Notes: generated from the sequence alone by a model not told the origin. A DNA stretch of 23,715 nt from Candidatus Micrarchaeota archaeon (GCA_038046605.1 JBBSVW010000027.1:1-23715); one strand, 5' to 3'; positions 6,072 through 21,236 are shown, numbered from the stretch's first letter. Translations and numbers: made by a program.

Positions 6072-6087
6072 AATGGGGTCACGGGGA

Positions 6088-6273
6088 TTTTCTGCCTTGC
6101 CCCTTTCTTTCAAAAAGAAAGGTGCGATGGCTCCGCGCCAAAGAAACAATTAGTTCGCGAATCAAAACCTTTTTCTTTTGCGGCGCCACCGCTTTTCTTT
6201 TTTGACCTAGCAGACAAAGTCTGCGAGGCCGCAAAGAGCCATATAAGCTCTTTTCGGAAAAGAAAAGCAAGGC
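6088..6273 (-). other. tRNA-Trp T-loop intron (position ~59/60, 186 nt)
   Basis: Removal restores the TTCGAAT loop. Relaxed BHB: TTCG-AA|G-CCTTGC pairs with GCAAGG-C(A)GAA-AA|T. The exact junction is ambiguous by 1-2 nt because of A runs. Confidence 0.85.
6094..6151. repeat. 58-bp dispersed repeat, copy 1 (in tRNA-Trp T-loop intron)
   Basis: 57/58 identical to 21011-21068 in the same orientation; the only difference is 6132 T vs 21049 A. Confidence 0.97.
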
Positions 6274-6294
6274 TTCGAACCCCGATCCACAGGT

Positions 6295-6423
6295 ATCTTC
6301 GAACCTTTCTTGGGAAGAAAGCTTCACCAAAGAAAAGTCATTTCTTGCTCGTCATTATATCCGAGCTCCAACATTGCCATCATCGTCCCCGTTTAGGGAC
6401 TCAAAATACCCGAAATTAAGAAT
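6295..6423 (-). other. tRNA-Trp anticodon-loop intron (canonical 37/38, 129 nt)
   Basis: CTCC-AG|A ... GAAG-AT|A BHB-like junction with one mismatch in the 4-bp helix; removal restores the 7-nt anticodon loop. Confidence 0.9.
6349..6412 (-). ncRNA. Intron-encoded box C/D guide RNA for 2'-O-methylation of tRNA-Trp C34 and C39
   Basis: Guide CGGGTATT plus D' TTGA (6404-6401) puts the fifth nucleotide upstream of the box opposite C39. Guide TTGGAGCT plus D CGGA (6363-6360) puts it opposite C34. C' ATGATGG (6383-6377), C ATGACGA (6355-6349). These are the same targets as the known euryarchaeal tRNA-Trp intron guide. Confidence 0.85.
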
Positions 6424-6660
6424 CTGGAGCCTATTGTTCTACCAGGTTATACTATGACCCCATAAAGCCCTTCGAACAATTCCACAAGAGTATGGCAAGA
6501 AGCATTAAAAAACAAAACGGCGATGAAAATAGCTAGGCAATTTCTCATGGTGCGCAAATAGGATTAGGCGCATTTGCAGATTTAGGCTTGGATTTTGGAA
6601 TATGCAATTGATAAAACCCGCCATCATGATTATTCGGATAACTTATTGAAGGTAAACCAT

Positions 6661-7368
6661 ATGTTCGTAATCGGCGTAGACGAGGCAGGCAGGGGGCCGG
6701 TGATTGGGCCTTTGATTATTTGCGCGTATGCAATCGAAGGGGAAAAGGAGCCGGAGCTGAAAAAGGAGGGGGTGAAGGACTCCAAACTGCTCTCTGGGAA
6801 GGAAAGGGAGCGGATTGCAAAAATATTGGCGCATCACCCCCACGAAATTTGCGAGGTGCCTGCGGAAGAGATAACCCATTACATGAAAAGGAATGTGAGC
6901 CTTAACGAGATGGAGGCGGAAAAGATTGCAGCTGCTGTTTTGACATTGTCGATTAGGCTTGCCAAGGGCGCAGGCGGCTTTGGGGGGCAGGCAGGAGAAG
7001 TGATCTCAAAGATCTTCGTGGATTCGCCCGATCCGATACCAAAGAAATTCGAGGTGAGAATCCGAAAATACTTAAGGGGAACGCCGCTTGAAAAAACCAA
7101 TATTGTGAGCGAGAACAAGGCGGATTTCAAGTATTTGTGCGTGGGCGCGGCGTCCATACTGGCAAAGAGCATGCGCGAAAGAAGGGTGGCAGATATTGCC
7201 GCGGAAGTAGGGGAGGATTTTGGCACCGGCTATCCTAGCGATGAAAAAACGGTCGAATTCCTGAAAAAGCATTACAAGGATGGGAATTTGCAAAAATACA
7301 TCCGGCACGGCTGGGCGACGATGAAAAACATAAGGACGACGGAACTCAAGCTGAAGGAATTTTTCTAA
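6661..7368 (+). CDS. rnhB: Ribonuclease HII
   Basis: GVDEAGRGPVIGP, VKDSKLL, ENKAD...VGAASILAK, FGTGYPSD; C-terminal PIP-box-like 'ELKLKEFF'. ATG 6661 preferred over TTG 6595. Confidence 0.96.
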   Translation: MFVIGVDEAGRGPVIGPLIICAYAIEGEKEPELKKEGVKDSKLLSGKERERIAKILAHHPHEICEVPAEEITHYMKRNVSLNEMEAEKIAAAVLTLSIRLAKGAGGFGGQAGEVISKIFVDSPDPIPKKFEVRIRKYLRGTPLEKTNIVSENKADFKYLCVGAASILAKSMRERRVADIAAEVGEDFGTGYPSDEKTVEFLKKHYKDGNLQKYIRHGWATMKNIRTTELKLKEFF

Positions 7369-7427
7369 ATAAAAAAATTTGGCGGAGTATAACTAATTAA
7401 ATATATTCGCAAATGCCGGCCTACCCT

Positions 7428-9527
7428 TCATTTCTCATCGTAGAATTCCAAATACGGCCAAACCCACTGGCTCCAGAACTGCGCAGGGTTCCTAACAGGC
7501 ACGGGAGAAAGCAGATCGGCATTGGGGGCATAATTTTCGCCTTCCGGCAGGGCAAAAAGCTCATGGGAATAAAACATCGCCCCCTCCTCCATTTGATGCT
7601 TGAGGTTGCTTTCAAGGATTTCTGGCGCCCTAGAATCCTTAATCCGGGTTAGGAGCCTAAATAGGGCGGGGCTTTCCCTTGGCCAAATCACCGCCTCATG
7701 GTACTGCTCATCCCCAAGGAAAATGCGGTTTTTTGAGTTGCGGACAAGAATGCCAAAGAGCAATCGTTTCCGGTACACCAGGGATGTTTCGAATTTGGAA
7801 ATCAACTTGGAAATTTCCCCATCTGAAAAAAGCTCGGGCACAAGCGCCGCGGAGTAAATTGAGGCGCTGCATTGGAGATCGCTTTTTTCAAAGCTCAAAT
7901 CAACCATGTCGCAGGCCTTATCCGAAAAGAAAAACGACTTGAAATTAAGCGACGCAGCGGCCTCCATCGCGGAAAATTCCTGCGAAGGGTAAAGCGAATT
8001 GAAATCCCTAAGGAACCGGATCCAGAGGGCATTGATTTCAACTAGGTAATAGTTGGGTCCAAGCGCCCAACCCTTGAATTCCTCAAAATTTTGGGATTCG
8101 CGCAAATGTTTTTCAATCCAGCGTTCAGGCAGCCTGCAGGGAAGCAAAATGCCCCTCCCGAAATGCTCAGCGTGCTTTCTCGAATCGATCCACGAATAAT
8201 TTGCAGGGCAGGCAAGAAGGTAGTTTTCAAGGCGCAAACTCCCTTTCGAGAGGGATTGCAAAAAGGAACGGGCAAATTCCCGAAATTTCCTCGAGAATAC
8301 CTTGTCATCGGAATGCCGCAGGTACGATACCCCGCAAAGAAGGCAAAGCAGGGTAGCATCGGCGGAGGAATAGTCCGTATTTTCGCCGCCTTTTTCCGCG
8401 AGCTTGTTTGGGATAATGCCCTCCCTTTGCATGGATATGGCTGCCAGCAGGAAATTCCTAACCTGCAGCCTTTTCATTTTGTGGAAGATATCGAAATTCT
8501 CATAAATCCCAAGCAGGGCGTCCCGGAACCATATGTTCCTAAACCAGAATGCACCGGCATCGGGAGCAACCACATCTCCATTTGCGAATTCGAATGCCTC
8601 AAGAAGGCCATAAAGGCGGCCCAGTATGTCGCGATGCGCGCTTTGGGAAAGGGCGCTTTTTTTCCTAAGAGGGCGGAGGAATGTTTTTTCCAGGCGAGAC
8701 ACCTTGGCAATGATTTTTTTTTCGTCGTGCGCCTTAAGCTCCTTGGACGGGGAATTTTTTTTATTGCTGGAGGGATAGAATGAAATTGCCGCGCAGCCTT
8801 TTGGCATCAAAAGTGAAATTGTCCCCGGAATGAACAGCGTTCGTTCCTCGCCTTGGAATTTCAATTGCCCTTGCGCGATATGGCGGCTTCCGGAGCCTAA
8901 TTTGTAGAACCAGTGCTGGTGATTGGGCGCCTGGGAAAAAGAAGTGAAATTTTTACTGTGCAAAACCATGCCTTTGCCCTTCCGCTCAACCGCAAGCCCT
9001 TGGTGGATTTCCGAAATTTTGTAGCCGGATGGATCGGAAGGGGCGTACATATGGCGGATATCGAATAGGGCAAGGAGGTCAATGGATAGGCCCTTGCCAT
9101 GAATGCCGGAAACCGAGTATGTGATTTCAAGCATTGGCAATTTCGAAGAACGGTAGAGGTAATACTCCACCTCGAGGAGGGCGCCGGATAGCTCTTCTTT
9201 AAATCCGCCGGTTAGGGAGTAAGTGTAAAGCGCCTTCCATGGGAAGATGCGCACATTTTTTGGGATGGCGAGCAATGTTACGCCCCCATTTTTTATGCGG
9301 AATGCAACGCCATCAAGCAATTTCCAGTTTTCTTTTCCAAGTATTGCGCAAAAGCCCTCGTAGGGATAGTCGCGGTTTGGGATGGTGTATTCACCAAGGG
9401 CCACTGACGCTGCGCTTTGGGAAAATTCGGAATGCGAATTGCGGAGGATGGAGCGCACGCTCCTTGCAAATCCGAAATCCGGATTTTCCTTTGGATCCAA
9501 GTCAATGAAGAGGTTTTTTGGGTTCAT
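7428..9527 (-). CDS. Glycogen debranching enzyme / amylo-alpha-1,6-glucosidase (archaeal GDE_N + GDE_C type)
   Basis: DAGAFWFRNIWFRD, GIIPN, YSSADATL, SWID, VEINALW, YHEAVIWP, ELF, QFWS match the GDE C-terminal motifs (AG..WF...W.RD, TWMD, YHNGTVWPW, QAWS). Confidence 0.85.
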   Translation of the reverse strand: MNPKNLFIDLDPKENPDFGFARSVRSILRNSHSEFSQSAASVALGEYTIPNRDYPYEGFCAILGKENWKLLDGVAFRIKNGGVTLLAIPKNVRIFPWKALYTYSLTGGFKEELSGALLEVEYYLYRSSKLPMLEITYSVSGIHGKGLSIDLLALFDIRHMYAPSDPSGYKISEIHQGLAVERKGKGMVLHSKNFTSFSQAPNHQHWFYKLGSGSRHIAQGQLKFQGEERTLFIPGTISLLMPKGCAAISFYPSSNKKNSPSKELKAHDEKKIIAKVSRLEKTFLRPLRKKSALSQSAHRDILGRLYGLLEAFEFANGDVVAPDAGAFWFRNIWFRDALLGIYENFDIFHKMKRLQVRNFLLAAISMQREGIIPNKLAEKGGENTDYSSADATLLCLLCGVSYLRHSDDKVFSRKFREFARSFLQSLSKGSLRLENYLLACPANYSWIDSRKHAEHFGRGILLPCRLPERWIEKHLRESQNFEEFKGWALGPNYYLVEINALWIRFLRDFNSLYPSQEFSAMEAAASLNFKSFFFSDKACDMVDLSFEKSDLQCSASIYSAALVPELFSDGEISKLISKFETSLVYRKRLLFGILVRNSKNRIFLGDEQYHEAVIWPRESPALFRLLTRIKDSRAPEILESNLKHQMEEGAMFYSHELFALPEGENYAPNADLLSPVPVRNPAQFWSQWVWPYLEFYDEK

Positions 9528-9643
9528 ATAAAATAATTCAACTTAATGCTGCACGAATGGGTAAAGATGGCGCTGCTTCCGATTCGGCTTAAGAATCCAC
9601 ATTTGCAACCCATTTACCCGGAACGCAATTGTTTCCTTTTTTT

Positions 9644-9856
9644 CTATTGCCTAAGCTTGTATTTGTATAGCAGCGGAACCTCGCCAACGATGTCCAGTTT
9701 GCCCTCCCTGCCAAGCCAGCCAAGCCCCGCATAAACCTCCGAATCCGTAAGCTTGGTTTTGCGCTTTAGCTGCGCAATTGTCAGGGGCCCAAATTCATTC
9801 AGGCAGCTCCACACTATGCCCGATTTTGCGCCAAAATACTCCTCAACACCCACCAT
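9644..9856 (-). CDS. Small winged helix-turn-helix protein (DUF2582-like)
   Basis: 'FGAKSGIVWSCL...LTIAQLKRKTKL...VYAGLGWLGREGKL' matches the IG..AG.VW..L / ALGWLAREGKI pattern; AGGTGA RBS upstream. Confidence 0.85.
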   Translation of the reverse strand: MVGVEEYFGAKSGIVWSCLNEFGPLTIAQLKRKTKLTDSEVYAGLGWLGREGKLDIVGEVPLLYKYKLRQ

Positions 9857-9913
9857 CTTGCATCACCTGCAATTTTTTTTCAGATTAATTTTTTTACTGC
9901 TAATTATCCCTTA

Positions 9914-11458
9914 TCACCCCATTTCAAACCGCTCATAATTTGCCTGCGCATGGCCGTAGATTTCAAATACTTTTTGCACTATGAAATTCCAATCGAAGTA
10001 GCGCTGCGAAACCCGCTGCGATGCGCCCTTCGAGATTTTTCTCCTTAGGCGATCGTCCTTTAGGCAAATGGCAATGATGCGCGCAAGGTAGCCCGGGTTC
10101 ATGTCAAACCTATCCTCCTCCATGGGGACCTTGAAGCCGGAAGCGCCATTTTTCACAACCTCCGCCATGCCGCCGGTATCGCCAACAATTGCAACGGGAC
10201 CGGAAAGGCCGTTTAGTTCGCTTGCCAAATCCGCGGCAAAAACCTCCAGGGTGACAAGGCCAAATGGCTCGTAGAGGGAGGGGAGGGCAATCACATCTGA
10301 TGCGCAAAACATCCCCTTCTTAAGATCCTCGCCAAGCCAGCCATTGTAAATTATGGCATCGCGCTCCAGTTGGAGCTTTGTGATCATCCCAAAATAATTT
10401 GCATACTCATCATTGGATAGGTTTGAGGAAATCACAAGGCCCGCATTTATTTTCGTTGCGGATTTAAGAAGCGCAAATGCCGATATCAGGGCGTCAATGC
10501 CCTTGCGGTATTCCGCCCTGCCTATGAAGAGCACGTACTTGTCCTTTCCCGGAAGCGCTTTTTGGAGCACTTTCCTTCCCGCATCGATGTTTTCCTTTGT
10601 AACAGAGCGCCAGCTGTCAAGGATTATTCCATTTGTCAGGCCGGCTGCCGCATCTGTAACAACCTCAAGATCGGATCCTGCCTCGAAGAGGAGCATATCC
10701 TCAAATCGCTCCTCTTTCCAGAGCTGGTAGTCGAGCCATTTCCTTGTCCTAAAGGGCGAAAGGGCGCTTCGAAGCCGCTGCTTTGCGGGGAGCAGGTTGT
10801 AAAGCTCGAATTTTGCCTCGTGGACTGAAACCCCCTGGAGATAATCCGCCTCCTGCAAAGCCGCGGTTTCTATCAGGACGGGGGGGGCATCGAAATCCGG
10901 ATGGCCAAGGCTCCTCCCAAATTCCCCCGAATGGAACCTGCAATTGAGCGGCCGCTTGATTTTTTCCCTCGTAAGGAAGCCCGCCGGGAATGCGAGCCAA
11001 TCCTGCGCATCAATAAGGGCTATATCCTCCTTCTTTTGCTTTATTAGGAAATCCGCAAATTCGGGCACGGCCTTCCAGTAGGCATTTAGCATGCGGTAAT
11101 ATTCCCAAAAGGCCGCCTTGTCGGATTTGATGCGGTATTTTACCCACAGTTCGCCATGGAAGCGGTTCTTTTCCTCATCGGTTAGGGAGCTTTCGAGGAA
11201 GAGGCACTTGATCCCTCCGCGCATCCCCTCGTAAACAAGGGTTTTGGGGTGCTTTTCCATGAAATCGGAATACTCGGAGGAAAATCTTAGGTCGGAGAGC
11301 GGAACGGATGGGTCCCTAATCGAAATTGGCATGGGCTCGAAGGGCGCAGTTTTCCCTTCAAGGGCATTTTTCCAGGCGGAGAAAAGCTCAATGGAGTAGC
11401 GGTGAAGGCCGCCAACTGGCCTATGCAGCTCGGTTACAAGGAAGAGCACTTTTTTCAT
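9914..11458 (-). CDS. GT4 (GT-B) glycosyltransferase, glycogen-synthase-like
   Basis: ELHRPVGGL, AQDWL, FHSGEFGR, NGI, LFIGRAEYRKGID, PSLYEPFGLVTLE, TGGMAEVV. Confidence 0.85.
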   Translation of the reverse strand: MKKVLFLVTELHRPVGGLHRYSIELFSAWKNALEGKTAPFEPMPISIRDPSVPLSDLRFSSEYSDFMEKHPKTLVYEGMRGGIKCLFLESSLTDEEKNRFHGELWVKYRIKSDKAAFWEYYRMLNAYWKAVPEFADFLIKQKKEDIALIDAQDWLAFPAGFLTREKIKRPLNCRFHSGEFGRSLGHPDFDAPPVLIETAALQEADYLQGVSVHEAKFELYNLLPAKQRLRSALSPFRTRKWLDYQLWKEERFEDMLLFEAGSDLEVVTDAAAGLTNGIILDSWRSVTKENIDAGRKVLQKALPGKDKYVLFIGRAEYRKGIDALISAFALLKSATKINAGLVISSNLSNDEYANYFGMITKLQLERDAIIYNGWLGEDLKKGMFCASDVIALPSLYEPFGLVTLEVFAADLASELNGLSGPVAIVGDTGGMAEVVKNGASGFKVPMEEDRFDMNPGYLARIIAICLKDDRLRRKISKGASQRVSQRYFDWNFIVQKVFEIYGHAQANYERFEMG

Positions 11459-11490
11459 GTCGCATCAACCTACTGTTTTTCATTTCCTAA

Positions 11491-12882
11491 TTATTGAATA
11501 ATATTTGCAGCGGCGTTGGAAGGGATAGGCACTTCGCCCCCAATAATTCCACTATTTTCACCGTTGAATGGGCGAGTGGGATTTTCATCTTCCGCCCTGA
11601 ATTCTTTTTCCTCGAATGCGGATTTGATTTCGGCCATCCTTTTCTTGCCAAAAATGTTTGCCCGCTCGTTTTCCTGCCGCGTAAGTTCGTAGCCAACCTG
11701 GCGCTTGAAGTGCTGTAAGATGTTCATGTAATTTATGAAATTGTCATAAGGCGTGTTTTCCTTGTAGGGGGAAAAGTGCTTATGCACATCCCCATCCTGC
11801 CAGCTTTTTGTGCAAAGGTAGTAGAGATGATCCGAGGTCTGGAGGAGGCGGTAGGTATGGAGCAATTCGGGATTGTTGGCTAGGCGAACTTTTTCCCCAA
11901 GGGATTCGAGCTGGTTGAAACACGCCCATTGAATCTTGTTGCCAAGCCAGGCGGAAACGTCGCGCTCCAAATCCGCCCATGAGAGGTTGCTTGGGACATC
12001 GATTTCACCAACCTTATCAAACGCGGATAGGGTTTGCGAGCAGGTTTTGAATGAGAGGTTTTGGTATTTCAAGACTTCAGATGGCAAGTGGCGAAGGAAC
12101 GAGAGGATTCCGGTATCGTGCCAGTGGTGCTCGCCAAATGTCTCATAGTCCATGAAGAGGTTGATCGTATCGCCCTGCGCTTTTGAGAGCCAGGAAGCGT
12201 ATTTGTCCGCCGTCAGGGGCCATTCACTCCACCACTTGGCGGAAAAGCGATAGCCAATATCGTCGCTTAATTTGTAATTGCGCAAAAGAACGCCCAGGTT
12301 GCCGCCCTGGTTCTTGTAAACATAATTTGGCGACCTCCAGCCAAGCACCCATTCGATGCCTTCCGTAAGCATTCCCGAGTAACCCATGCCCTCGACAATT
12401 TTGGCGATCCTATTGGAATAAATCACCTCGGTATTCCGAAAAACCTTGGGAGTTTGATGGAATTCATCACGCAAAAGGGCGCTATGCATCTTCACCTGCT
12501 CCTCGAATTCCTCCGGATCGGAAAATAGGCTTGCAAGCGAATGGTAATAGGTTTCATCCAGGAATTCCACATTTCCAGTTGAGGCAAGTTGGCGGAAGGA
12601 ATCCAATACGTCCCTTCCGGGGGCGGTTTTTTTCGCCTGCTCAATGAAGGTCCCGGTTATGCTGTAATTTACCTTGAATGCACCGTAGTTTTCCTCGATT
12701 AGGCGAAGGAGAAGCTTGTTTGTTGGCTCATAGCATTTCGTTTTTGCCTTGTTGAAATAGTGCTCGTTCATCGGGGCGTTGAAGTAGTGCTCCAAAAGCG
12801 GCTTTCCACCCTCATGGAATAGGGAGAACTTGCCAAACCGGATGGGCTGGTGGACATGGAAGTACAGGCAAATTGATGGCAT
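11491..12882 (-). CDS. Glycoside hydrolase family 57 (alpha-amylase-like)
   Basis: GH57 regions HVHQP, ETYYHSL, FRNTE (nucleophile), MDYETFGEH (acid/base), LQTSDHLYY. ATG 12882 (MPSICLYF) preferred over TTG 12906. Confidence 0.93.
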   Translation of the reverse strand: MPSICLYFHVHQPIRFGKFSLFHEGGKPLLEHYFNAPMNEHYFNKAKTKCYEPTNKLLLRLIEENYGAFKVNYSITGTFIEQAKKTAPGRDVLDSFRQLASTGNVEFLDETYYHSLASLFSDPEEFEEQVKMHSALLRDEFHQTPKVFRNTEVIYSNRIAKIVEGMGYSGMLTEGIEWVLGWRSPNYVYKNQGGNLGVLLRNYKLSDDIGYRFSAKWWSEWPLTADKYASWLSKAQGDTINLFMDYETFGEHHWHDTGILSFLRHLPSEVLKYQNLSFKTCSQTLSAFDKVGEIDVPSNLSWADLERDVSAWLGNKIQWACFNQLESLGEKVRLANNPELLHTYRLLQTSDHLYYLCTKSWQDGDVHKHFSPYKENTPYDNFINYMNILQHFKRQVGYELTRQENERANIFGKKRMAEIKSAFEEKEFRAEDENPTRPFNGENSGIIGGEVPIPSNAAANIIQ

Positions 12883-12884
12883 GG

Positions 12885-13295
12885 TTATTTTTCGACCTTT
12901 TTCCAATTAATTGCAAGTGTAAGCGAGCACGCGACAATGTAGAGCCAGATGAATTGCATCAAAATCGAAAAGATTGCGAAGGGGATGCCGGATTGCAAAA
13001 GGGGGGTAAGCCCGTAGCTTTGCCATAGCAGGAACGAGGGGAAGCTTAGGATTATCAATGCCCAATAAAATACCCAAAATAAGGTGTCGGGCTTTAGCTG
13101 TGGGCTAACGGATAGGAATGCGAATGATATTCCAAGGAATAGGGTTAGGAGCAATAGGTAAATGCGTTTTTGCCTTGTGGGGGATAGGAATTGCCTAAGC
13201 CGGGATTGCCTTACAACCCCCTCAAATTCGGATTCGCCAAAGGATGGATGTGGGATTTTTGGTTTTTCCAAATTGCGCTTTATTTTTTGTTCCAT
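12885..13295 (-). CDS. Hypothetical membrane protein (~3 TM)
   Basis: 136-aa ORF packed between GT4 and GH57 on the same strand; three hydrophobic segments. Confidence 0.7.
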   Translation of the reverse strand: MEQKIKRNLEKPKIPHPSFGESEFEGVVRQSRLRQFLSPTRQKRIYLLLLTLFLGISFAFLSVSPQLKPDTLFWVFYWALIILSFPSFLLWQSYGLTPLLQSGIPFAIFSILMQFIWLYIVACSLTLAINWKKVEK

Positions 13296-13327
13296 ATATT
13301 TGACACGCCAATAATTTTTTAACGGGT

Positions 13328-14605
13328 TCAGCCCGTCCTTTCATTCATGATTTTTTCATAAACCAATTTTGTTTCTGCCGCGCATTTTTGCCAGTTGAAA
13401 TGCCCGGCCTCCTCCCTTGCGCCAGAAGAGAGCATTTCCCGAAGCTCGGCGTACCTTAGCACTGCAAGCATCTTGTTTGCCATCTCATCCACGTCCCAAA
13501 AATCAACGCGCAGGCAATGGTTTATGATTTCGGATACCCCGCAGCTTTTGCTTACAATTGCAGGGACGCCATTTGCCATTGCCTCAAGGACGGTTAGGCC
13601 AAAGGGCTCGGAAATGGATGGGAGCACATACGCATCCGCAATCGCATAAAGGTAGGGCAGCTTGGATTCCTCGGCATAGCCCGTGAACATCACATTATCA
13701 ATGATGCCCATGGAAATTGCCTCATTCACAAGCTGGGGAAGCATATCGCCCTTCCCGGAAATTATGAAGCGCACATCCGGATCCAATTCGAGCACCTTTT
13801 TTGCGGCCTTGAGGAAAAAATCGGGCCCTTTTTGGATGGAGAGGCGACCGTGGAAAAGGACGACTTTTCCGGTAATCCCAAATTGCTCCTTTTTCACCTG
13901 CGATTTGTATTTGGATAGGTCGATCCCGTTGTAAATTACTGTGATTTTTTCGGGTTTTGCGCCAAATCTTGAAACGAGCTGGTTTTTGGTCATGTTGCTG
14001 ACAGTGATCACATGGCTGGATTGCGCCATTGCATTGCGCTCAATAGCTAATATCCACTCAAATGGCGAAATGTTGGCGGTTCTGTCGTATTCGGTGCTAT
14101 GCATTGTGCCAATTGCGGGCCTGCCTATCCGTTTTGCGGCATCAAGGCCCGCCTTTGCGGTTATCCAGTCATGAAAATGAACGAGGCCGTATTTTTCCCT
14201 GCGGTTCTTTTGGGCAACGAGCTTTGCGACAAGGAAATTGTACCTTCCAACGGCTTCGAAGAAATTTAGGCCATAGCTTTCATCGGTTTTTGGGTCGTCG
14301 GTAATTGAGGGATCGCCATTTTTCGCATCACCAACCTTATTCTTCCCGCCGCCCATTTTAAGGAACTTGAAATAGGGGCCAAACTCGGCGTCCGTTAAAT
14401 CGATTTCACCAACAAATGCGGAATAATCAACCGGGATGATGCGGACATTTGGATGGGGGGAAATAATTGTTGTGCCGGAACTAGGCATATAGAAATCGAT
14501 TTTGACCCCAAGGTTGGCAAGCGCTTTTGTAAGTTCAAAGCAATGGACGCCAAGGCCTCCGCTAACAAAGGGGGGGAATTCCCAACCCAGCATTGCAACT
14601 CGCAT
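13328..14605 (-). CDS. GT4 glycosyltransferase (glycogen synthase-like)
   Basis: MLGWEFPPFVSGGLG, HFHDW, HSTEYDR, VIYNGID, GRLSIQKGP, PSISEPFGLTVLEAM; this type is usually found next to GH57 and GDE genes. Confidence 0.92.
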   Translation of the reverse strand: MRVAMLGWEFPPFVSGGLGVHCFELTKALANLGVKIDFYMPSSGTTIISPHPNVRIIPVDYSAFVGEIDLTDAEFGPYFKFLKMGGGKNKVGDAKNGDPSITDDPKTDESYGLNFFEAVGRYNFLVAKLVAQKNRREKYGLVHFHDWITAKAGLDAAKRIGRPAIGTMHSTEYDRTANISPFEWILAIERNAMAQSSHVITVSNMTKNQLVSRFGAKPEKITVIYNGIDLSKYKSQVKKEQFGITGKVVLFHGRLSIQKGPDFFLKAAKKVLELDPDVRFIISGKGDMLPQLVNEAISMGIIDNVMFTGYAEESKLPYLYAIADAYVLPSISEPFGLTVLEAMANGVPAIVSKSCGVSEIINHCLRVDFWDVDEMANKMLAVLRYAELREMLSSGAREEAGHFNWQKCAAETKLVYEKIMNERTG

Positions 14606-14949
14606 TATTTATCTACCGTATTCATGTTAAATTCCCGTCCAATTGGAAAAAACAGCTTAATTTGAGCTTGAATTTGGAAAAAAAGTTAAAATCCAGCTGC
14701 GTTTAACCATCGGAATAATAATGCAAAGCGGATTGAATCCATTTTTGCACTGTTTACTATTGTTATTTGGGGTATAAAAGAGTAAGGTATGCAAGAAATA
14801 CCGCCCTAAATCAGCCCGTAATTTACTACCAGTTTGGAGGGAAAAAATACGGGCAATCAGAAAATGAAGCGCATGGCTGAACATACAAAAGCCAGTCAGA
14901 TCCAGCATGCCATTTTGAACCCCCACTATTTTCCGCCAATAGTTTGCGA

Positions 14950-17916
14950 TTAGGGGGATAGGAAGATGGCGGGCTTTAGGGGAAGGGAACGCTGCGCTTT
15001 TCCTTGCGGATCGGCATCAATTGGAAGGTTTCCGGCTAAGTACGCCTCAACTTTGCATCCAAATCGATTTTCAAATAGTGGAAGGCTTTGGGAGAGCAGG
15101 GAAAACTCGTCAAATTCCGGGATTGCAACTGTTTTGTAATAATTTACTGATTTGCTGATTTGAAGAAGGAACTGGGGCACGAGTTTTGCATGGGGCTTGA
15201 ATTTTCCATCGGCCATTGCAAGCTTGATTAGGGAGGGCACATCGAATTTTCCATCGGCCTGCGCTTTATTCAAGGCGAGCTTGAAAAGACCGGTTTTCCA
15301 GCCTTCGCAGGCATAGAGGCGGATAAGCTTGGGGGAGGAACTTGTAATCTGGATGATGCGCGCTACATCGGATGCCACATTCTCAAGGTATTTTTCCCCC
15401 TCTTCCAAAGAGGCGTTGATTTTCGAGGGATCGGGTATGGGATAGGCTGCATCTGAACAATAACCCGTTTTCCCCATGATTTTCCAGGCCTCTTCTGAAA
15501 AATGCGGCGTGAAGGGGCAAAGCATCGGGATGATTCTTTCAAGGCAGCCCCTTACTAGCAAAACATCCGCATCTTCGCCCTTTGAATTGGCATATTGCCT
15601 AAGTGCCTCCACTCCCTTGAAAACAATTGCCTGGATTGCCGTGCGGAATTCCATTTTTTCCATTGCGGCGCTGGCAGATAGGAGGCTTGATTCGATGCGG
15701 CTTTGGAGAAGTTTTTCCTCCCTTCCAAATGCGGGTTGATTTGTTGGCAGGGGATTGCCATTCGAAATGGAGTCCAAATGGGCATTGGGCTTTTTTCCCC
15801 CCAATCCTTCCATGTTTTTTATTTTTTCCACCTGGCCTAAAATGAATTCAAGGCTGCGGTTGTAGGTTTTGATGCCCTCTTCGCGCCAGTTGGCATCATC
15901 GAGTCCTTCGCCGGCGGCGGTTATGTTTATGCGCACAAGATCGGCGCCGTATTCTGTGAGCATCTTGAAAATGGGCAGGAAATTCCCCTTGCTCTTGCTC
16001 ATCTTTTCCCCTTCGACTGTGACATAGCCATTGACGGAAATGGCCCTTGGTGAAAGTTGGGGGCCAAAAATGGCAACGTGGTGGAAGAGGAGGAAGAGGA
16101 GATGGTTTTGCAACAGGTCCTTTCCGGAATTGCGCAAATCAACGGGGTAGAAATAGGCAAATTCGGCTTTCATTTCGGAAATAATGGATGCGGGCAAACC
16201 GGAGCGTTTTGATATCCCATCCAAATCGCCAATTCCCAGGAAAATATAATCGAAAACTTCATCCGTTAGCTTTTCTGCCAGTATTCCCCACTCATTGATT
16301 GCCCTTGCAATTGTGTAGTAGGCCATGTAAATGGTGCTATCCGAAAGCGTTTCCACTTTCCATTCCTTATCCCACGGAAGCCTTGTGCCAAGCCCGCCTT
16401 TCCTTGCGCATGCCTTGTTTTGGAGCCAATCAATTGTGTTTTCCATCTGGAGCCGCGCATCATTTGGGAAAATCGGCATGGTTTTGAGATGGGATTTGAC
16501 GGCTTCTTTCCATTTAGGGTCTGAAAATTTCAAGAACCACTGGTTTTCAAGAATCTTCACATGGCATTTGGCCATGCAACGGCAGACCACATCCCCGGTG
16601 GATTCCCACATGGAGGAGGCGATTTTGAGTGATTTGAATTTGGCAATTATAGGATCCTTGGATTCTGAAATGGATTTGCCGGCAAACTCGCCAAACATCC
16701 CCTTCAAGATTCCCTTGTGGAATTCAAGCTTGTAGATTTGCGAGGTTGCCTCTACTAATTTTACGGCGTCTTTTTGGGAAGTAATCCCTAATTTTTTGCA
16801 CTCCTCGATAGCCGGGTAATTGCCATGGCCCTCAATTGAAATCAGTGAAATGGGGGTTATAGACGCAAGGAGGCTTTTGGATATCCCAAGCGATGCCAAT
16901 TCTCCTTCATTTTTCTTTTTCAAATCTTCAAGGGCAATGTAATCGTATGGCGCATGGGCAGGAACGCCCATTACAACCCCGGTTCCGGTGTTTGGGGATA
17001 CAAAGGATGCGGGGAGTATGGGGATTGGCGAATTCAGGAGGGAAATTTTGCATTTTTTTCCTATGAGGGATCTTGGGCCGATGGGAATGGCGCCCTCCAG
17101 AATGTGCTGCTGGTCTGAGAGCTTTAGGGCCGCATACTCTGAAACAACCCACATTTGCCCATCCACTTTCACTTTCACATATTTTTCATCCGGGTTAAGC
17201 CAAATGTTGGTTGCGCCGTAAGTTGTTTCGGGGCGCAAAGTTGCGCAGGGGAGAATTATTTTTTCGCCGTTAATTTCCGCCTCGAATTTGATTATGGTGT
17301 ATTCGATTGGGGATTCGCCCTCGCCGGTGTACCTATCGTGGTCGCCCGTTGGGGATTTGTCATGCGGGCACCAGATCACCGGATGCGTGCCTTGCACAAC
17401 ATAGCCCTTCTTCCTTAATGTATTGTACTGCCATTCGATGAAGCGCGAATATTGGGGGGTGAGATCGGTTGTGATGAATTTCCTTCGCCAGTCAATTGAT
17501 GCGCCGGCGGATTTGAGATCGGAAATCCATTTTTGCATCCAGAATTTGGCAACGTGCTCGGGGCCTTTTTTGAATCCCTCGATTTCGGAATTAGTGGCAC
17601 CGGCCTTCTTGAAATTTTCCACCTGCGCCAAATCGCCTTTGCGCAATCGTTCAACTGTTCCCATGATGGGTTCTCCGGTTGCATGGAAGCCCTGTGGGAA
17701 GAGCGTATTATAGCCCTGCATGCGCTTGAACCGGGCGTAAACATCAGTTCGGAAAAAAGAATAACTGTGCCCGACATGCATGGCGCCGTTCAAATAAGGG
17801 TAGGGGAAAGTAATGAGGAACTTTTTGCGCTTGGGATCCGGGTTTGCCTCGAAAATTTTGGCATTTTCCCATTCTGCTTGCCATTTCTTTTCGTTTGCAA
17901 CAAAATCAAAGGGCAT
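14950..17916 (-). CDS. leuS: Leucine--tRNA ligase (archaeal type)
   Basis: FPYPYLNGAMHVGH (HIGH), ATLRPET and GTGVVMGVPAHAPYD (CP1 editing domain), SGKDLLQNHL, KMSKSKGN, C-terminal PLKPAI. Confidence 0.97.
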   Translation of the reverse strand: MPFDFVANEKKWQAEWENAKIFEANPDPKRKKFLITFPYPYLNGAMHVGHSYSFFRTDVYARFKRMQGYNTLFPQGFHATGEPIMGTVERLRKGDLAQVENFKKAGATNSEIEGFKKGPEHVAKFWMQKWISDLKSAGASIDWRRKFITTDLTPQYSRFIEWQYNTLRKKGYVVQGTHPVIWCPHDKSPTGDHDRYTGEGESPIEYTIIKFEAEINGEKIILPCATLRPETTYGATNIWLNPDEKYVKVKVDGQMWVVSEYAALKLSDQQHILEGAIPIGPRSLIGKKCKISLLNSPIPILPASFVSPNTGTGVVMGVPAHAPYDYIALEDLKKKNEGELASLGISKSLLASITPISLISIEGHGNYPAIEECKKLGITSQKDAVKLVEATSQIYKLEFHKGILKGMFGEFAGKSISESKDPIIAKFKSLKIASSMWESTGDVVCRCMAKCHVKILENQWFLKFSDPKWKEAVKSHLKTMPIFPNDARLQMENTIDWLQNKACARKGGLGTRLPWDKEWKVETLSDSTIYMAYYTIARAINEWGILAEKLTDEVFDYIFLGIGDLDGISKRSGLPASIISEMKAEFAYFYPVDLRNSGKDLLQNHLLFLLFHHVAIFGPQLSPRAISVNGYVTVEGEKMSKSKGNFLPIFKMLTEYGADLVRINITAAGEGLDDANWREEGIKTYNRSLEFILGQVEKIKNMEGLGGKKPNAHLDSISNGNPLPTNQPAFGREEKLLQSRIESSLLSASAAMEKMEFRTAIQAIVFKGVEALRQYANSKGEDADVLLVRGCLERIIPMLCPFTPHFSEEAWKIMGKTGYCSDAAYPIPDPSKINASLEEGEKYLENVASDVARIIQITSSSPKLIRLYACEGWKTGLFKLALNKAQADGKFDVPSLIKLAMADGKFKPHAKLVPQFLLQISKSVNYYKTVAIPEFDEFSLLSQSLPLFENRFGCKVEAYLAGNLPIDADPQGKAQRSLPLKPAIFLSP

Positions 17917-17986
17917 AAAATCAGCTCAGGGCAGATTTTACCCTCTCAAAGAATAAAAGCGTGTGTAAAACGGGGCCTGTTGGAAA

Positions 17987-18000
17987 GAAAAGTATAAATA
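17987..18000 (+). promoter_or_regulatory. Putative archaeal BRE/TATA promoter
   Basis: GAAAAG-TATAAATA in the intergenic region divergent from leuS, upstream of a small + strand ORF. Confidence 0.45.
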
Positions 18001-18064
18001 CTCAAAATACCATATCAATATAACGAAATAATTGGGGATGCGGAAATTTCAAGGGGATAAGGAT

Positions 18065-18193
18065 ATGGAAGCAGTTGCAATTTTGATGGGAATAGTCGTA
18101 GCATACCTCTTTGCGTTCACAACAATAAAACGCGATGGGCTAATTGAGATTCTGGTTCTTTTGGGAGCAGGGATTTGGCTGGTTGGGGCATAA
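18065..18193 (+). CDS. Small membrane protein (42 aa; 51 aa from in-frame ATG 18038), absent from the ORF track
   Basis: Manual translation MEAVAILMGIVVAYLFAFTTIKRDGLIEILVLLGAGIWLVGA*: two hydrophobic helices with a KRD turn; TATA box upstream; its stop abuts the stop of the convergent gene. Confidence 0.55.
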   Translation: MEAVAILMGIVVAYLFAFTTIKRDGLIEILVLLGAGIWLVGA

Positions 18194-18772
18194 TCACATC
18201 GGCTCAAAATTTTGCTTGTGCTCTTCCCATTTTAAGCCCAGTGGCTTGAATAATTTTTTTGCAACGGCAATTTCCTTTCCTAGTTGGCCTTTTAACCCGG
18301 GCTCTGAAAAAATATCCACCGTGCCGTCCTCATGTATTGCAAAACCGATTTTCGTTTCGGATTGGCCCACAAAAATCGACGTCCTGCCTTCTCCCCACAT
18401 CATCCTTACCGGCACTTGAATAGCTCCTCCGGAAAGTAAAACTCTTGGATGCCATTCATGGTACCAACTTAATGGCGAAATGCGCGATTCGATCCCGATC
18501 TGGCTTTTGTCGGGGCCCTTGTATTCGTTTGGAGAACCCCCCTTGGCAAAAAATTTCAGTACGTTTGAAAGCTTGAGAAGTGCATCGGGGGAATAGTGGG
18601 CAATGTGCTTTAGGGCCGCACGTTCCAAGGGCAATTCAAGATGAAAAGCGCGATGCGAGGTGAAAACATCCCGGCCATGCGCTTCGAGGATTTTTCCTAT
18701 TATGGATGGGTGCCCCGCTTTGCGCTTCATTGCCTCGATTGTCGCATCCCATCTTTTTCCGAATACGGTCAT
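18194..18772 (-). CDS. Hypothetical protein
   Basis: Long ORF with GGTGA RBS ahead of ATG 18772 (the track starts at GTG 18781); no family recognised. Confidence 0.65.
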   Translation of the reverse strand: MTVFGKRWDATIEAMKRKAGHPSIIGKILEAHGRDVFTSHRAFHLELPLERAALKHIAHYSPDALLKLSNVLKFFAKGGSPNEYKGPDKSQIGIESRISPLSWYHEWHPRVLLSGGAIQVPVRMMWGEGRTSIFVGQSETKIGFAIHEDGTVDIFSEPGLKGQLGKEIAVAKKLFKPLGLKWEEHKQNFEPM

Positions 18773-18837
18773 TTTAATCACCCATCAGAATTTCATTCAG
18801 GCCGGATTTTGACATATTATTCGCCTAATCATCGAAG

Positions 18838-19488
18838 TTATTTAGAGCTCAAATCGTTTATTGCCCTTCTTACAAGTTCCCTATAGTATTCAACTGGCCT
18901 TCGGACAAAATGATCATATTGCTCAATATCAACTATCCGGCTTTTCCGCCAAATCTCATTCAAGCTCTCCTCCAGAGTTTTCAAATGCCCAAGAAGCCTT
19001 ATCCGGTCTACCTTAGCCTTTGTCATTTCCGGCAGTACTCTTGAAGCATGAAATTTGACCTTATATTTCCCCAACTGTTTCACGTGGCCACTCCCTTCAA
19101 CGATGGAATCGTGGAACATGTGGTTTCCCGTCACAATCCGCTTAAGTATATCGATTTCTTCTGGAGTCGCCGATGGAGGCATGAGTTTTCCACGGATATG
19201 ATCGCGGATTGATGCATAAGCCGCAACATTGCCCTGTTGTTCGGGATATTTTTCGTGGGTTTTTCCCTTGTTTAGAATTTCTGTTGCGGAAGGGAGGGTT
19301 CCAAAAAACATTGATGAATATACGCCTGTTTTAGAACCAGATCTTCGGCCGCCTGCCTCATCTGCAGCCTCTTGGTAGGCTCCCATTGCGTTGCCCATCA
19401 ATTCGCGAAGTTCTCTTCTGGCGGCAATTTTTTCCCCTTCTTCATTCATAGCAATTACCTGCCTCACGTGTTGCATCCATTCAGGCAC
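18838..19488 (-). CDS. Hypothetical protein
   Basis: 216-aa ORF co-oriented with srp54; start uncertain; no family recognised. Confidence 0.65.
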   Translation of the reverse strand: MPEWMQHVRQVIAMNEEGEKIAARRELRELMGNAMGAYQEAADEAGGRRSGSKTGVYSSMFFGTLPSATEILNKGKTHEKYPEQQGNVAAYASIRDHIRGKLMPPSATPEEIDILKRIVTGNHMFHDSIVEGSGHVKQLGKYKVKFHASRVLPEMTKAKVDRIRLLGHLKTLEESLNEIWRKSRIVDIEQYDHFVRRPVEYYRELVRRAINDLSSK

Positions 19489-19537
19489 CCAGCCCTTCCG
19501 GATTTTTCGGGAAATATGGCCATTTATAATTACCCAA

Positions 19538-20845
19538 TTAAATTTTCATCCCCGGAGGCAGCATGTTCCCAAACCGCTTCATTAACCCCCGGTTTCCCTT
19601 CATTCCCTTCATCATCTTTGAAACGCGCTCGAAAGTTGTTACAAGCTCCCGGACATTATCGTGCTTAAGGCCAGCGCCCTTTGCAACGCGCTCTTGCCTT
19701 GCCCTATTTTTCATTAGCTCGGGGTTTTTGCGCTCCTTGACCGTCATGCTAAGCACTGCCGCCTCGTAGCGTTTCATATTTGCCTCGGATTGGCCAAGCA
19801 TTTCTTCAGGCACATCGTACATGCCAAGCATTTGCAGAATCTGCTTCATGGGCCCCATTTTCTTCATGGAGCGCATCTGCGCAAGGAACGTTTCGTAGTC
19901 GAGCTTTCCTTCCTTTAGCACTTTTTCCATGGCTTCCTCATCGGAGATTTCTTGGACCTTTGAGAGAAGCGAATCCAAATCCGCAAACCCCACAAGGCGC
20001 GCAACAAATTTCTTTGCATCAAAAACCTCGAGTGCATCCGGCTTTTCGCCAAGCGTAATGAAGGCGACTTTTGAATTGCTTGCCTTGACTGCTGAAAGCG
20101 CGCCACCCCCTTTTCCCGAGCCGTCCATTTTTGTGACGATGACGCCGGTTATTCCAACAGCCTCATTGAATTGGAAGGCTTGCTTGCCGGCAACCTGCCC
20201 CAAATCTGCGGAAACCACTAGGTACTTTTCATCAGGGGCAAAAATGGAATTGATCGCCTTGAGTTCTTGCGCCAATTCCGAATCAAAAGCGCTCCTTCCT
20301 GCGGTATCGAAAATGAGCACGTCATACTGCGTTTCCAGCTTGAGGGAATTGCGTGCAATGGTTTGCGCACTTGAGCCTTTTTCGGAGTAGAAGCCGCAAT
20401 GCACGGATTGGGATAATTGCTCTAGCTGCTCAATAGCTGCTGGCCGGTGGACATCGCCGGCAATTGCGCAAACCTTAAGGCCCTTGCTTTGGTAGAATTT
20501 GGCGAGTTTGGCAATGGAGGTCGACTTGCCGCTGCCGAAGAGCCCGAGCATCAATATTTTTTGCTTTTTGGTTTGGGGCTCGTATTTTTCGCCCAGAATC
20601 AAGACGAGCTCATCGTATACTATTTTCACGATGTGCTCGCGCAAATTGAGGTTTTGCGCCTTTTTTTCCTGCATCGCCTTTTCCTCGATGGATTTTGTAA
20701 GATCATAGACCAGCTTTACATTGACATCGTTGGAAATAAGCACGCGCTGCAGCTCCTTGACAAGCTCCTTGATTGCCTTTTCGTCGACTAACGCGGCTCC
20801 GGTGAAGCGGTTTAGGGCGTTCCGGATGCCGGCTCCCAGGTCCAT
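19538..20845 (-). CDS. srp54: Signal recognition particle 54 kDa protein
   Basis: ELQRVLISNDVNV, GLFGSGKSTS, DVHRPAA, DTAGR, TKMDGSGKGGGALS, Met-rich M domain with SMT..ER.NP. Confidence 0.97.
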   Translation of the reverse strand: MDLGAGIRNALNRFTGAALVDEKAIKELVKELQRVLISNDVNVKLVYDLTKSIEEKAMQEKKAQNLNLREHIVKIVYDELVLILGEKYEPQTKKQKILMLGLFGSGKSTSIAKLAKFYQSKGLKVCAIAGDVHRPAAIEQLEQLSQSVHCGFYSEKGSSAQTIARNSLKLETQYDVLIFDTAGRSAFDSELAQELKAINSIFAPDEKYLVVSADLGQVAGKQAFQFNEAVGITGVIVTKMDGSGKGGGALSAVKASNSKVAFITLGEKPDALEVFDAKKFVARLVGFADLDSLLSKVQEISDEEAMEKVLKEGKLDYETFLAQMRSMKKMGPMKQILQMLGMYDVPEEMLGQSEANMKRYEAAVLSMTVKERKNPELMKNRARQERVAKGAGLKHDNVRELVTTFERVSKMMKGMKGNRGLMKRFGNMLPPGMKI

Positions 20846-21003
20846 ATTGATCAGCTTTACTTATCTGAAAATAAGGGTTAATAAGCGTGGCGAAAAGGTG
20901 CAAAAAACAGGCAAATGGGGAGAGGGATTGAATGGATGAACGCGGCCAGTATCGCGCCTCTTTTCCACGCTCAAAGGAATAAGAATAAATGGGGGCGCTG
21001 AGA

Positions 21004-21113
21004 TTTGAACGCCTTGCCCCTTTCTTTCAAAAAGAAAGGTGCGATGGCACCGCGCCAAAGAAACAATTTGATTTGCGAATTAAATAGCTTCATTAGCGGC
21101 GCTTAAGGCAGGC
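21004..21113 (-). other. tRNA-Pro T-loop intron (position 58/59 or 59/60, 110 nt)
   Basis: Removal restores TTCAAAT; intron ends pair (GCCTGCC / GGCAAGGC); GTTCAAA occurs at both junctions, so the exact boundary is ambiguous. Confidence 0.85.
21011..21068. repeat. 58-bp dispersed repeat, copy 2 (in tRNA-Pro T-loop intron)
   Basis: 57/58 identical to 6094-6151. Confidence 0.97.
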
Positions 21114-21150
21114 TTTGAACTCAGATCAACAGCTCCCAAAGCTGTCAGCA

Positions 21151-21236
21151 TGCCGGATCCCCTTTCTGTTCTCCCAAGACAAAAGCCCTTTTCTTTGAAC
21201 CCAAGGGCCTTTCTTTTCCGGGAAAAGAAAGGGGCT
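21151..21236 (-). other. tRNA-Pro D-loop intron (position 21/22, 86 nt)
   Basis: BHB-type junction CTGG-TA|A ... CCGG-CA|T, with central helix CTGG/CCGG and intron stem CCCCTTTCT/AGAAAGGGG. Confidence 0.88.

Follow-up and report, generated by a model that had tools for sequence, protein, structure and literature searches.

The tRNA-Trp(CCA) and tRNA-Pro(TGG) genes in a 23,715-nt stretch of Candidatus Micrarchaeota DNA (GCA_038046605.1 JBBSVW010000027.1:1-23715; this whole stretch is called the window below) are each interrupted by two introns, and each of the four introns contains a short pyrimidine/purine hairpin accompanied by a tail that mirrors the hairpin's pyrimidine arm. Sequence statistics give good support to the identification of this motif as an intrastrand-triplex module. 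With moderate confidence, the hairpins are considered the probable Watson-Crick duplexes of such modules, which would form a dispersed repeat family rather than a feature peculiar to tRNAs, lodged here in tRNA introns. Intrastrand triplex repeats as such are already known from bacteria; the novel aspects are the A/T-rich core, the longer spacer, the covarying flanking helix and pseudoknot, and the residence in archaeal tRNA introns.

Mirror-tailed hairpins in the introns of tRNA-Trp and tRNA-Pro

The pattern CTTTCTTN{3,9}AAGAAAG has four matches in the window (6103-6121, 6305-6321, 21020-21038, and 21209-21231) and none in 100 dinucleotide-preserving shuffles (mean 0.00, largest count 0). Hairpins of at least 7 bp with a pyrimidine and a purine arm are likewise limited to these four in 23.7 kb, and all of them lie in tRNA introns (modules A1 and A2 in tRNA-Trp, B1 and B2 in tRNA-Pro; Table 1). 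The original prediction had claimed one hairpin motif in all four introns, and this is borne out, at a frequency far above chance. Its further remark that the motif had not been noticed in other intergenic regions holds within the window for the pattern scan, the hairpin scan, and a scan with R1, a covariance model described below.

Each of the four hairpins has an exact mirror tail on one strand (7/7, 6/6, 7/7, and 9/9 positions), so the block order of an intrastrand triplex is present in 4/4. Every tail mirrors the pyrimidine arm and ends in G(G); aligned in parallel with the purine arm, its T residues face A and its C residues face G. On the minus strand, the tails of Trp intron 1 and of both T-loop copies, which are of the TTTCTTTGG type, precede the hairpin by 7 or 17 nt. 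The fourth hairpin (21208-21232) has its tail, CTTTTCTTT, at 21187-21195 on the plus strand, 11 nt upstream; the spacers between tail and arm thus measure 7, 17, 17, and 11 nt, and the hairpin loops 3 nt. In particular, B1 is informative on the mirror rule because its arms are asymmetric: the tail fits the mirror at 9/9 positions on the plus strand versus 4/9 on the minus strand. Three modules are sense to their tRNA and one, B1, is antisense.

The tail sequence CCAAAGAAA occurs four times, against a mean of 0.87 expected and with 0/100 shuffles reaching four. Three of these occurrences adjoin hairpins (6138-6146, 6327-6335, and 21055-21063), exactly where they had been predicted, and the fourth (7039-7047) lies within the RNase HII reading frame. 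The prediction had missed the tail CTTTTCTTT, which is on the other side of its hairpin and on the other strand. It had also counted a hairpin at 6249-6263 as a copy; this hairpin exists, with 6 bp, but it lacks a matching tail and is not a copy of the motif.

In the raw window, tRNAs were called neither by ARAGORN run without its intron option nor by Rfam, and with the intron option on, ARAGORN still returned no tRNA at the raw Trp and Pro loci. Read on the minus strand, both regions start and finish in tRNA fashion. After excision of the T-loop insert, ARAGORN calls tRNA-Trp(CCA) with a 129-nt canonical intron, i(40,129); after excision of both a D-arm insert and a T-loop insert, it calls tRNA-Pro(TGG), with anticodon UGG. 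The spliced products are 73 nt each, with acceptor stems of 7/7 and T stems of 5/5 pairs and with T loops TTCGAAT (Trp) and TTCAAAT (Pro). Thus, a cloverleaf is regained in both genes when the intervening sequences are removed. The splice points are uncertain by 1-2 nt wherever an intron has the same base at either end; for Trp intron 2, cuts at 59/60, 58/59, or 57/58 give an identical product. The D stem of the tRNA-Pro model (21237-21258 with 21146-21150, minus strand) is weak, consisting of G-T, G-C, and C-G pairs and a mismatch, and that of tRNA-Trp has a mismatch at 12:23. Multi-intron tRNAs of this type, two of which escaped both ARAGORN without its intron option and Rfam here, may be missed in genome annotation.

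The modules lie close to the ends of their introns, at distances of 4-7 nt in all four: A1 ends 6 nt ahead of the 3' end of Trp intron 1, and B1 starts 4 nt inside the 5' end of Pro intron 1. The two T-loop introns are homologous. Their last 58 nt, which comprise A2 (6094-6151) and B2 (21011-21068), are 98% identical, approximately 95 nt are alignable, both introns start with GCCT, and when they are aligned over their full length, the mean column identity is 74%. Over the 58 nt, they therefore form an intron family shared between two isotypes of one genome at well above 80% identity. Such near-identity in tRNAs of different isotype indicates that the module has been copied between sites. At Pro intron 2, GTTCAAA stands at both ends (21114-21120 and 21004-21010, minus strand), so that the entire T-loop sequence is duplicated and the splice point is ambiguous. 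This duplication resembles a target duplication or a microhomology; it is found at 1/4 of the window introns, and Trp intron 2 is without it.

Table 1. Positions of the tRNA genes, introns, modules, and associated features in the window
Feature	Position	Strand	Details
Module A1, short form	6296..6341	-	tail 6336-6327; flanking helix GAA/TTC; hairpin 6321-6305; mirror 6/6
Module A2, Micrarchaeia form	6094..6151	-	tail 6146-6138; GC-rich linker; hairpin 6122-6102; closing strand GGCAAGGC; mirror 7/7
Module B1	21184..21240	+	antisense to tRNA; tail 21187-21195; hairpin 21208-21232; mirror 9/9
Module B2, copy of A2	21011..21068	-	tail 21063-21055; hairpin 21039-21019; mirror 7/7
tRNA-Trp(CCA) gene, two introns	6074..6461	-	exons 6461-6424, 6294-6274, 6087-6074
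Trp intron 1, 129 nt, canonical 37/38 site	6295..6423	-	ARAGORN; 1 nt ambiguity
Trp intron 2, 186 nt, T loop	6088..6273	-	insert removal and ARAGORN
tRNA-Pro(TGG) gene, two introns	20990..21258	-	exons 21258-21237, 21150-21114, 21003-20990
Pro intron 1, 86 nt, D loop/D stem border (~21/22)	21151..21236	-	boundary probable
Pro intron 2, 110 nt, T loop, same site as Trp intron 2	21004..21113	-	insert removal and ARAGORN
Extra 6-bp hairpin, Trp intron 2, not a module	6249..6263	-	mirror 4/6 and 3/6 on the two strands; R1 E=4.1
Putative box C/D-like guide, Trp intron 1	6349..6384	-	C-like 6383-6377; guide TTGGAGC 6371-6365; D'-like 6364-6360; C'-like 6355-6349

The module family in other genomes

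A scan of a contig collection with tail and hairpin as the pattern returned at least 124 loci (identifiers of the L003 type). The matches listed, to which the counts from other genomes given below refer, comprise 67 archaeal and 57 bacterial loci; by arithmetic, approximately one match would be expected if all bases were equally frequent, with a higher number in low-complexity DNA rich in A/T. Further copies, the absence of which would have spoken against the original prediction, are indeed present: other archaeal tRNA genes contain them, and so does the intergenic DNA of relatives.

A mirror tail beside a hairpin is the layout of a pyrimidine-motif triplex, whereas a competing Watson-Crick partner would be a direct repeat. 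The two were compared at pyrimidine/purine hairpins with asymmetric arms that lie outside the pattern matches, in the listed loci and the window (n=92). Upstream, with exact matching, 25 hairpins have a mirror tail only, 6 a direct repeat only, 8 both, and 53 neither; downstream of the same 92, the mirror-only, direct-only, and double classes number 0, 1, and 4. The 25 mirror-only tails have many different sequences, approximately 17 of them independent by genome and family, and most are followed by GG. A looser count that allows one mismatch (mirror 101 versus direct 104) is uninformative because the arms are nearly symmetric.

Two further structural elements are associated with the hairpin. 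The bases that flank it form a mean of 4.77 consecutive pairs, compared with 2.21 +/- 0.13 in 500 permutations (largest 2.7), and when 46 short-form sequences are aligned, two pairs of this flanking helix show 13 and 10 compensatory changes, a score reached by 0/500 shuffles. Pairing between the bases ahead of the tail and the hairpin loop, which would create a pseudoknot, is supported overall (2.68 pairs versus 2.24 +/- 0.07) but weak in the window copies (1-3 pairs). In Pseudomonadota, this pseudoknot shows compensatory changes in 4/4 pairs, again with 0/500 shuffles reaching the score; 63% of its cells are paired, as the register varies from one sequence to another. Tandem G.A pairs beside the hairpin of some copies from DPANN archaea were considered as a K-turn/L7Ae site, and this candidate was dropped since, by eye, the 3-nt bulge is absent.

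The covariance model R1, for which 45 sequences from outside the window were used, matches A1 (6296-6341) over its full length with 49 bits (E=2.1e-9). Its matches to the other three hairpins are partial (E=4e-4 to 5e-3), and nothing in the rest of the window falls below E=0.19; the window modules thus belong to the same family as those of other genomes. No Rfam family covers the module at gathering scores over the whole window, and at E<=10 the region 5900-6700 gives chance-level matches only. Rfam searches of the listed loci agree: 16 loci gave only tRNA and TwoAYGGAY matches nearby, none covering the module; 20 short loci at E<=1 gave scattered miRNA-type noise; and 18 archaeal loci gave three tRNAs and no family for the module.

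Genomes differ in where they keep the module. ANME-1/Methanophagales and other archaea carry many intergenic copies of the short form per genome. In DPANN archaea (Micrarchaeota, Aenigmatarchaeota, Woesearchaeota, Altiarchaeota, and others) and in Thermoplasmatales, it often resides in tRNA genes; in particular, deletion of the module with variable flanks yields an ARAGORN tRNA across the junction in 14/35 archaeal loci, and an Rfam tRNA match spans the module at one locus (L023) and lies 4 nt from it at another (L040). Clostridia have a multi-copy module with a small hairpin ahead of it. In Pseudomonadota, the module stands immediately 3' of a TwoAYGGAY RNA match (RF01731) on the same strand. 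Individual instances of the latter arrangement are L011 (365-475 and 296-332, both minus strand) and the downstream flanks of L076 and L070; in some Pseudomonadota loci, a second copy of the module lies approximately 200 nt away in inverted orientation.

The closest of the listed matches (L097) is identified, in the accessible part of the source, as isolate LFW-144_1, 'Ca. Norongarragalina meridionalis', of the class Micrarchaeia, and is 74% identical to the window at the nucleotide level in SRP54 and 93% in the T-loop module. Its 58-nt module (300-348, minus strand) lies 8 nt past the SRP54 stop codon, outside any tRNA. The matching SRP54 flank of the window (19489-19537) is a 49-nt gap without a module, so that the relatives differ in its presence or absence at this site. 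Two other Micrarchaeota loci carry the module as two tandem intergenic copies (L084) and in the T-loop insert of a tRNA-Val (L050; read from the sequence and called three times by ARAGORN). The Micrarchaeia form has a common GC-rich linker and the terminal GGCAAGGC.

Some loci show additional peculiarities. In L040, L059, L061, L072, and L087, the module lies between long direct repeats of 12-30 nt (18 nt in L040, 25 nt in L059); the repeats derive from the end of the adjacent tRNA gene in L040, L061, and L087 and from the 3' end of the preceding open reading frame (ORF) in L059. Such flanking repeats could reflect duplication by integration or triplex-induced slippage. L124 (25-363) holds a CRISPR-like array with a 37-38-nt repeat at 75-80 nt spacing, and the module is found between the last, degenerate repeats; a CRISPR spacer was considered as a possible origin of this copy. 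In L003 (2909-3145), variant modules with a TTCTTTTGG tail and a CTTTTCTT/AAGAAAAG hairpin come after near-identical gene ends that are themselves repeated, and tail and hairpin change in concert.

Explanations for the modules

From 5' to 3', a module consists of a pyrimidine tail with G(G), a linker or flanking strand, the pyrimidine arm, the loop, the purine arm, and a second flanking strand; the complementary strand has the purine-motif layout. In the proposed mechanism, the tail would fold back parallel to the purine arm and form a pyrimidine-motif triple helix. The helices of the module may serve as the intron-side helix in a relaxed bulge-helix-bulge site, from which the inserts would be removed by a splicing endonuclease of broad specificity, such as the epsilon2 enzyme of ARMAN-2. 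By copying or recombination, possibly aided by triplex-induced instability, the module would spread among intergenic sites and those tRNA sites that permit splicing, and tRNA introns would be places where insertion of the module is harmless in either orientation. The earlier suggestion of tRNA introns as safe havens is, given the copying between sites, a reasonable reading.

By eye, a relaxed motif that comprises the 3' bulge with a helix on either side can be drawn at each of the four introns. At the Trp 37/38 site, the drawing suggests a relaxed helix-bulge-helix at the 3' splice site, with the anticodon stem, the bulge, and 3/4 central pairs. At the Trp T loop, it comprises the T stem, the 3-nt bulge AAT, three pairs and a G.A, a 2-nt bulge, and a 7-bp closing helix (GCCTTGC/GCAAGGC), the 3' strand of which is the module's GGCAAGGC. 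The Pro T loop would have the 3' bulge only, with helices on either side, and in the minimum-energy fold of Pro intron 1, CTGG/CCGG is paired, CAT bulged, and GGC/GCT paired. Because the hairpin with its flanking helix is palindromic, a module can supply the intron-side helix either way round. An EndA splicing endonuclease was not found among the 19 ORFs of the window.

Several findings weigh against this explanation. The conservation of the core across domains is partly ascertainment, because the scan pattern imposed the core sequence, and the tail does not clearly lengthen with a longer stem (18/45 versus a background of 21/81 among the matches listed). The ARAGORN deletion scans have a noise floor, with two spurious calls at each of two bacterial loci. 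A strict bulge-helix-bulge scan (4-bp central helix, two 3-nt bulges) was swamped by low-complexity pairings and did not recover the expected junctions. No transposase family is matched by the 19 window ORFs, which thus offer no mobility enzyme. Direct repeats of at least 12 nt flank 9/119 listed copies versus 11/600 random controls, only a minority. Finally, the antisense copies that predominate in tRNA genes elsewhere imply that the intron RNA carries the purine-tail form, which, according to the accessible text of PMC4666352, does not fold into a triplex as RNA.

The strongest alternative, itself unlikely, is that the module is a functional intron RNA domain. In sense copies, the tail would dock in the major groove as a U.A-U / C+.G-C triplex, and the fold would be selected as a rigid, nuclease-resistant structure, with a pseudoknot in some relatives, that stabilises the excised intron, such as the box C/D-like guide of the Trp intron, or holds the pre-tRNA in a shape in which the splice site forms. 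Several observations are consistent with such a domain: the sense orientation of three of the four window copies, the position of the Trp module right after a box C/D-like part, pre-tRNA folds more stable than those of shuffled sequences (z = -6.7 and -4.2), and the same-strand placement of the Pseudomonadota module 3' of TwoAYGGAY RNA, together with its covarying pseudoknot. A 3' pseudoknot in extended TwoAYGGAY RNAs is also described in the accessible part of a recent preprint (10.64898/2026.09.22.753630). However, the tRNA-embedded modules with at least nine ARAGORN calls among the matches listed are mostly antisense, as is B1: 13 have this orientation (B1 being one of them) and 2 are sense (one being the window Trp copy), the two sense T-loop copies of the window coming in addition. 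For copies next to protein genes, a stop codon on the same strand is found no more than 120 nt upstream of the module in 20/79 listed cases, and one on the opposite strand no more than 120 nt downstream in 36/79; a role in sense orientation at mRNA 3' ends is therefore unsupported. The module is thus not tied to sense RNA, free-standing and tandem copies exist, and the pseudoknot is weak in the window. A dispersed DNA repeat that is tolerated in introns is ranked above a dedicated RNA domain mainly because most transcripts would carry the purine-tail form.

It is improbable that there is no family at all and that convergent T/C-rich hairpins serve as stable intron helices, only the T-loop introns being related, through gene conversion. 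The motif is of low complexity, polypurine/polypyrimidine tracts permit many alternative pairings, and the core sequence was imposed by the scan pattern. Nevertheless, not a single match arises in 100 shuffles, R1, which was trained elsewhere, matches the Trp copy over its full length including the flanking helix, and neither the excess of mirror over direct tails nor the covariation of the flanking helix is a property of low-complexity sequence. B1, with a different and asymmetric sequence, still follows the mirror rule.

The weakest explanation is the one originally proposed, namely a palindrome of the REP (repetitive extragenic palindrome) or MITE (miniature inverted-repeat transposable element) kind that is moved in trans by an HUH enzyme, either an IS200/IS605 TnpA or a RAYT, and inserts into tRNA genes. 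REPs are imperfect palindromes of 20-40 bp with a conserved 5' tetranucleotide and clustered copies, and the same repeats lie on both sides of the RAYT gene. Insertion of IS200/IS605 elements leaves no target duplication. The multi-copy occurrence of the element in both orientations and in many genomes, the GTTCAAA at both ends of the Pro T-loop intron, and the long direct repeats, such as those of a tRNA end, around some archaeal copies would suit such insertion, but it is most improbable: neither REPs nor IS200 ends possess anything that corresponds to the defining mirror tail, the duplication is not expected of IS200/IS605, and HUH, IS200/IS605, TnpB, and RAYT families are missing from the 23 ORFs that flank 13 other loci as well as from the window. 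The description as a small repeated element thus stands, with the mirror-repeat tail, rather than a simple palindrome, as its defining feature; the REP/MITE label and a TnpA/RAYT gene flanked by the same hairpin do not. Neither a RAYT nor a Y1 transposase occurs in the window or by the copies examined, no OrfB/TnpA is found in the 19 and 23 ORFs, and no Rfam match points to IS200/IS605 ends or omega-RNA. As regards MITEs, the inverted repeats are internal, the 7-nt duplication is limited to 1/4 of the window introns, and an autonomous partner is missing among the 19 and 23 ORFs. One of the 23 flanking ORFs matches IstB_IS21 and Bac_DnaA and is an AAA+ helper or DnaC-like ATPase; the others are unrelated housekeeping genes. 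Bacterial triplex repeats, too, have no mobility genes nearby, as far as the accessible text of Holder et al. (PMC4666352) goes.

The module is a candidate vehicle for the arrival of archaeal tRNA introns at new sites, one with a checkable sequence signature: it is compact, has its own helices, and occurs in tRNA genes of several archaeal lineages in either orientation, beside genes, in tandem, and in near-identical form in two tRNAs of one genome. It also joins three subjects that had been treated apart, namely the intrastrand triplex repeats of bacteria, the pseudoknot at the 3' end of TwoAYGGAY RNAs, and the disrupted tRNA genes of ultrasmall archaea. A far-reaching extension, which must be regarded as speculative and rather unlikely, is that triplex-hairpin modules are self-propagating repeats shared between domains, a main source of new tRNA introns in archaea with a broad-specificity endonuclease (DPANN and some Thermoplasmatota), and have been recruited as the 3' domain of bacterial TwoAYGGAY RNAs. 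In this extension, a module inserted in either orientation would bring its own helices, create a cleavable relaxed bulge-helix-bulge, and so become an intron.

Relation to known elements and other features of the window

The nearest known elements are the bacterial PIT (potential intrastrand triplex) elements BoxC, TM_ECO, and the ITxF classes I-IV, described as conserved and abundant intrastrand triplex repeats (Holder et al. 2015, PMC4666352, accessible part). The same source links bacterial triplex repeats to genomic rearrangement and notes that classes on the two strands are coupled. Like them, the module has Hoogsteen, pyrimidine, and purine blocks on one strand, occurs abundantly and in either orientation, and has no mobility genes found nearby; in the ITxF scheme, it corresponds to class IV on the pyrimidine-tail strand and to class II on the complement. 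In contrast, the elements described in print come from bacteria, and the one that has been characterised is rich in G/C; the module has an A/T-rich core of the TTTCTTT type, its flanking helix covaries, some lineages add a pseudoknot, and it resides in archaeal tRNA introns. Moreover, its spacers of 7-17 nt exceed the 1-6 nt allowed for ITxF loops. The main text of PMC4666352 contains neither tRNA, intron, TTTCTTT, nor AAAGAAA, and no report of a triplex motif in tRNA introns was found in the full-text literature, a coverage that excludes subscription journals.

Families of tRNA introns and 'intron transposition' are known from Thermoproteales (Sugahara 2008, Fujishima 2010, as cited in the accessible parts of 10.64898/2026.10.13.758758 and PMC3239211). 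Shared with these, as far as they are described there, is related intron sequence across isotypes at sites capable of forming a bulge-helix-bulge; the differences are the Micrarchaeia-like lineage, the defined structural module, of which those descriptions give no counterpart, and its occurrence outside tRNA genes and in both orientations. In ARMAN-2, 56% of the tRNA genes are disrupted, T-loop introns with relaxed motifs occur at 59/60 and 53/54, and the epsilon2 endonuclease cleaves relaxed motifs (PMC3239211, accessible part). T-loop introns, several introns per gene, and a tRNA-Pro(UGG) with a nearly unpaired D stem are common to both genomes on this evidence. The introns displayed in that part of the article measure 13-25 nt and no repeat is mentioned there, whereas those of the window are 86-186 nt long and carry the module.

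TwoAYGGAY RNAs are depicted in the accessible part of the preprint cited above (September 2026) as multi-copy, as divergent doublets, as resembling mobile elements, and as having a 3' pseudoknot in their extended form. In Pseudomonadota, the module with its tail, hairpin, and pseudoknot directly adjoins the 3' side of RF01731 matches, and the 3' pseudoknot of the preprint is probably that of the module, a correspondence drawn from its text rather than its figures. That part of the preprint mentions neither a triple helix, archaea, nor tRNA introns. The window modules are not themselves TwoAYGGAY RNAs: AYGGAY hairpins are absent, and RF01731 is found neither in the window at the gathering score nor at the Trp locus at E<=10.

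H-type triplex pseudoknots (the SAM-II and preQ1-II riboswitches and telomerase RNA) and the ENE/MALAT1 triple helices, reviewed in PMC13541005 (accessible part), would be structural analogues if the triplex forms, with a U-rich strand in an A-U-rich major groove and a single C+.G-C that sets the register. In contrast to these RNAs, the module is dispersed and multi-copy and has no evident ligand or poly(A) partner; no sequence or Rfam relation to them was found.

Apart from its module, Trp intron 1 appears to contain a box C/D-like guide. The guide TTGGAGC is complementary to GCTCCA of the anticodon loop, and in this duplex the partner of position 34 is the fifth base ahead of the D'-like box; judged by this pairing, the guide would direct 2'-O-methylation of position 34 of tRNA-Trp. 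The C-, D'-, and C'-like boxes each depart once from the consensus, and the Rfam sR1 match to this part is weak (10.8 bits, E=4.7). Module A1 follows directly, where the 3' part of a guide RNA would be, and the A1 tail overlaps at its end with a putative D box, GTGA (6327-6324). A box C/D guide RNA was reportedly described in the tRNA-Trp intron of Haloferax and other archaea by Clouet-d'Orval in 2001. Trp intron 1 resembles the Haloferax intron in its box-like elements and in a putative guide that would place position 34 at the methylation site; it differs in that its boxes are each off consensus by one position and in that its D box and second guide are uncertain. The Haloferax-type tRNA-Trp intron guide is also mentioned in the accessible part of PMC12558985.

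The remaining genes of the window, the G+C content of which is 45-53%, look like ordinary archaeal ones. The 19 ORFs scanned include SecD/SecF, an MTHFR-like protein, RNase HII, SRP54, an RNase PH-type exosome subunit, and a class I aminoacyl-tRNA synthetase, which matches Pfam tRNA-synt_1 and has an editing domain of the Leu type. At 21399-21440, a purine-rich tract (plus strand GGGAAAGAAGAAAGAAAGGAAAAGG) lies just downstream of the stop codon of the minus-strand ORF 21441-21701; it has neither a hairpin nor a mirror partner and was ruled out as a module. A two-gene MetE-like pair occupies 3016-5177, with a weak Meth_synt_1 and a clear Meth_synt_2 match, and a glycogen-type cluster with GH57, two GT4/GT5-like transferases, and a debranching-type GDE_C protein occupies 9914-14605. 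Both the pair and the cluster sit in what appears to be a small DPANN-type genome.

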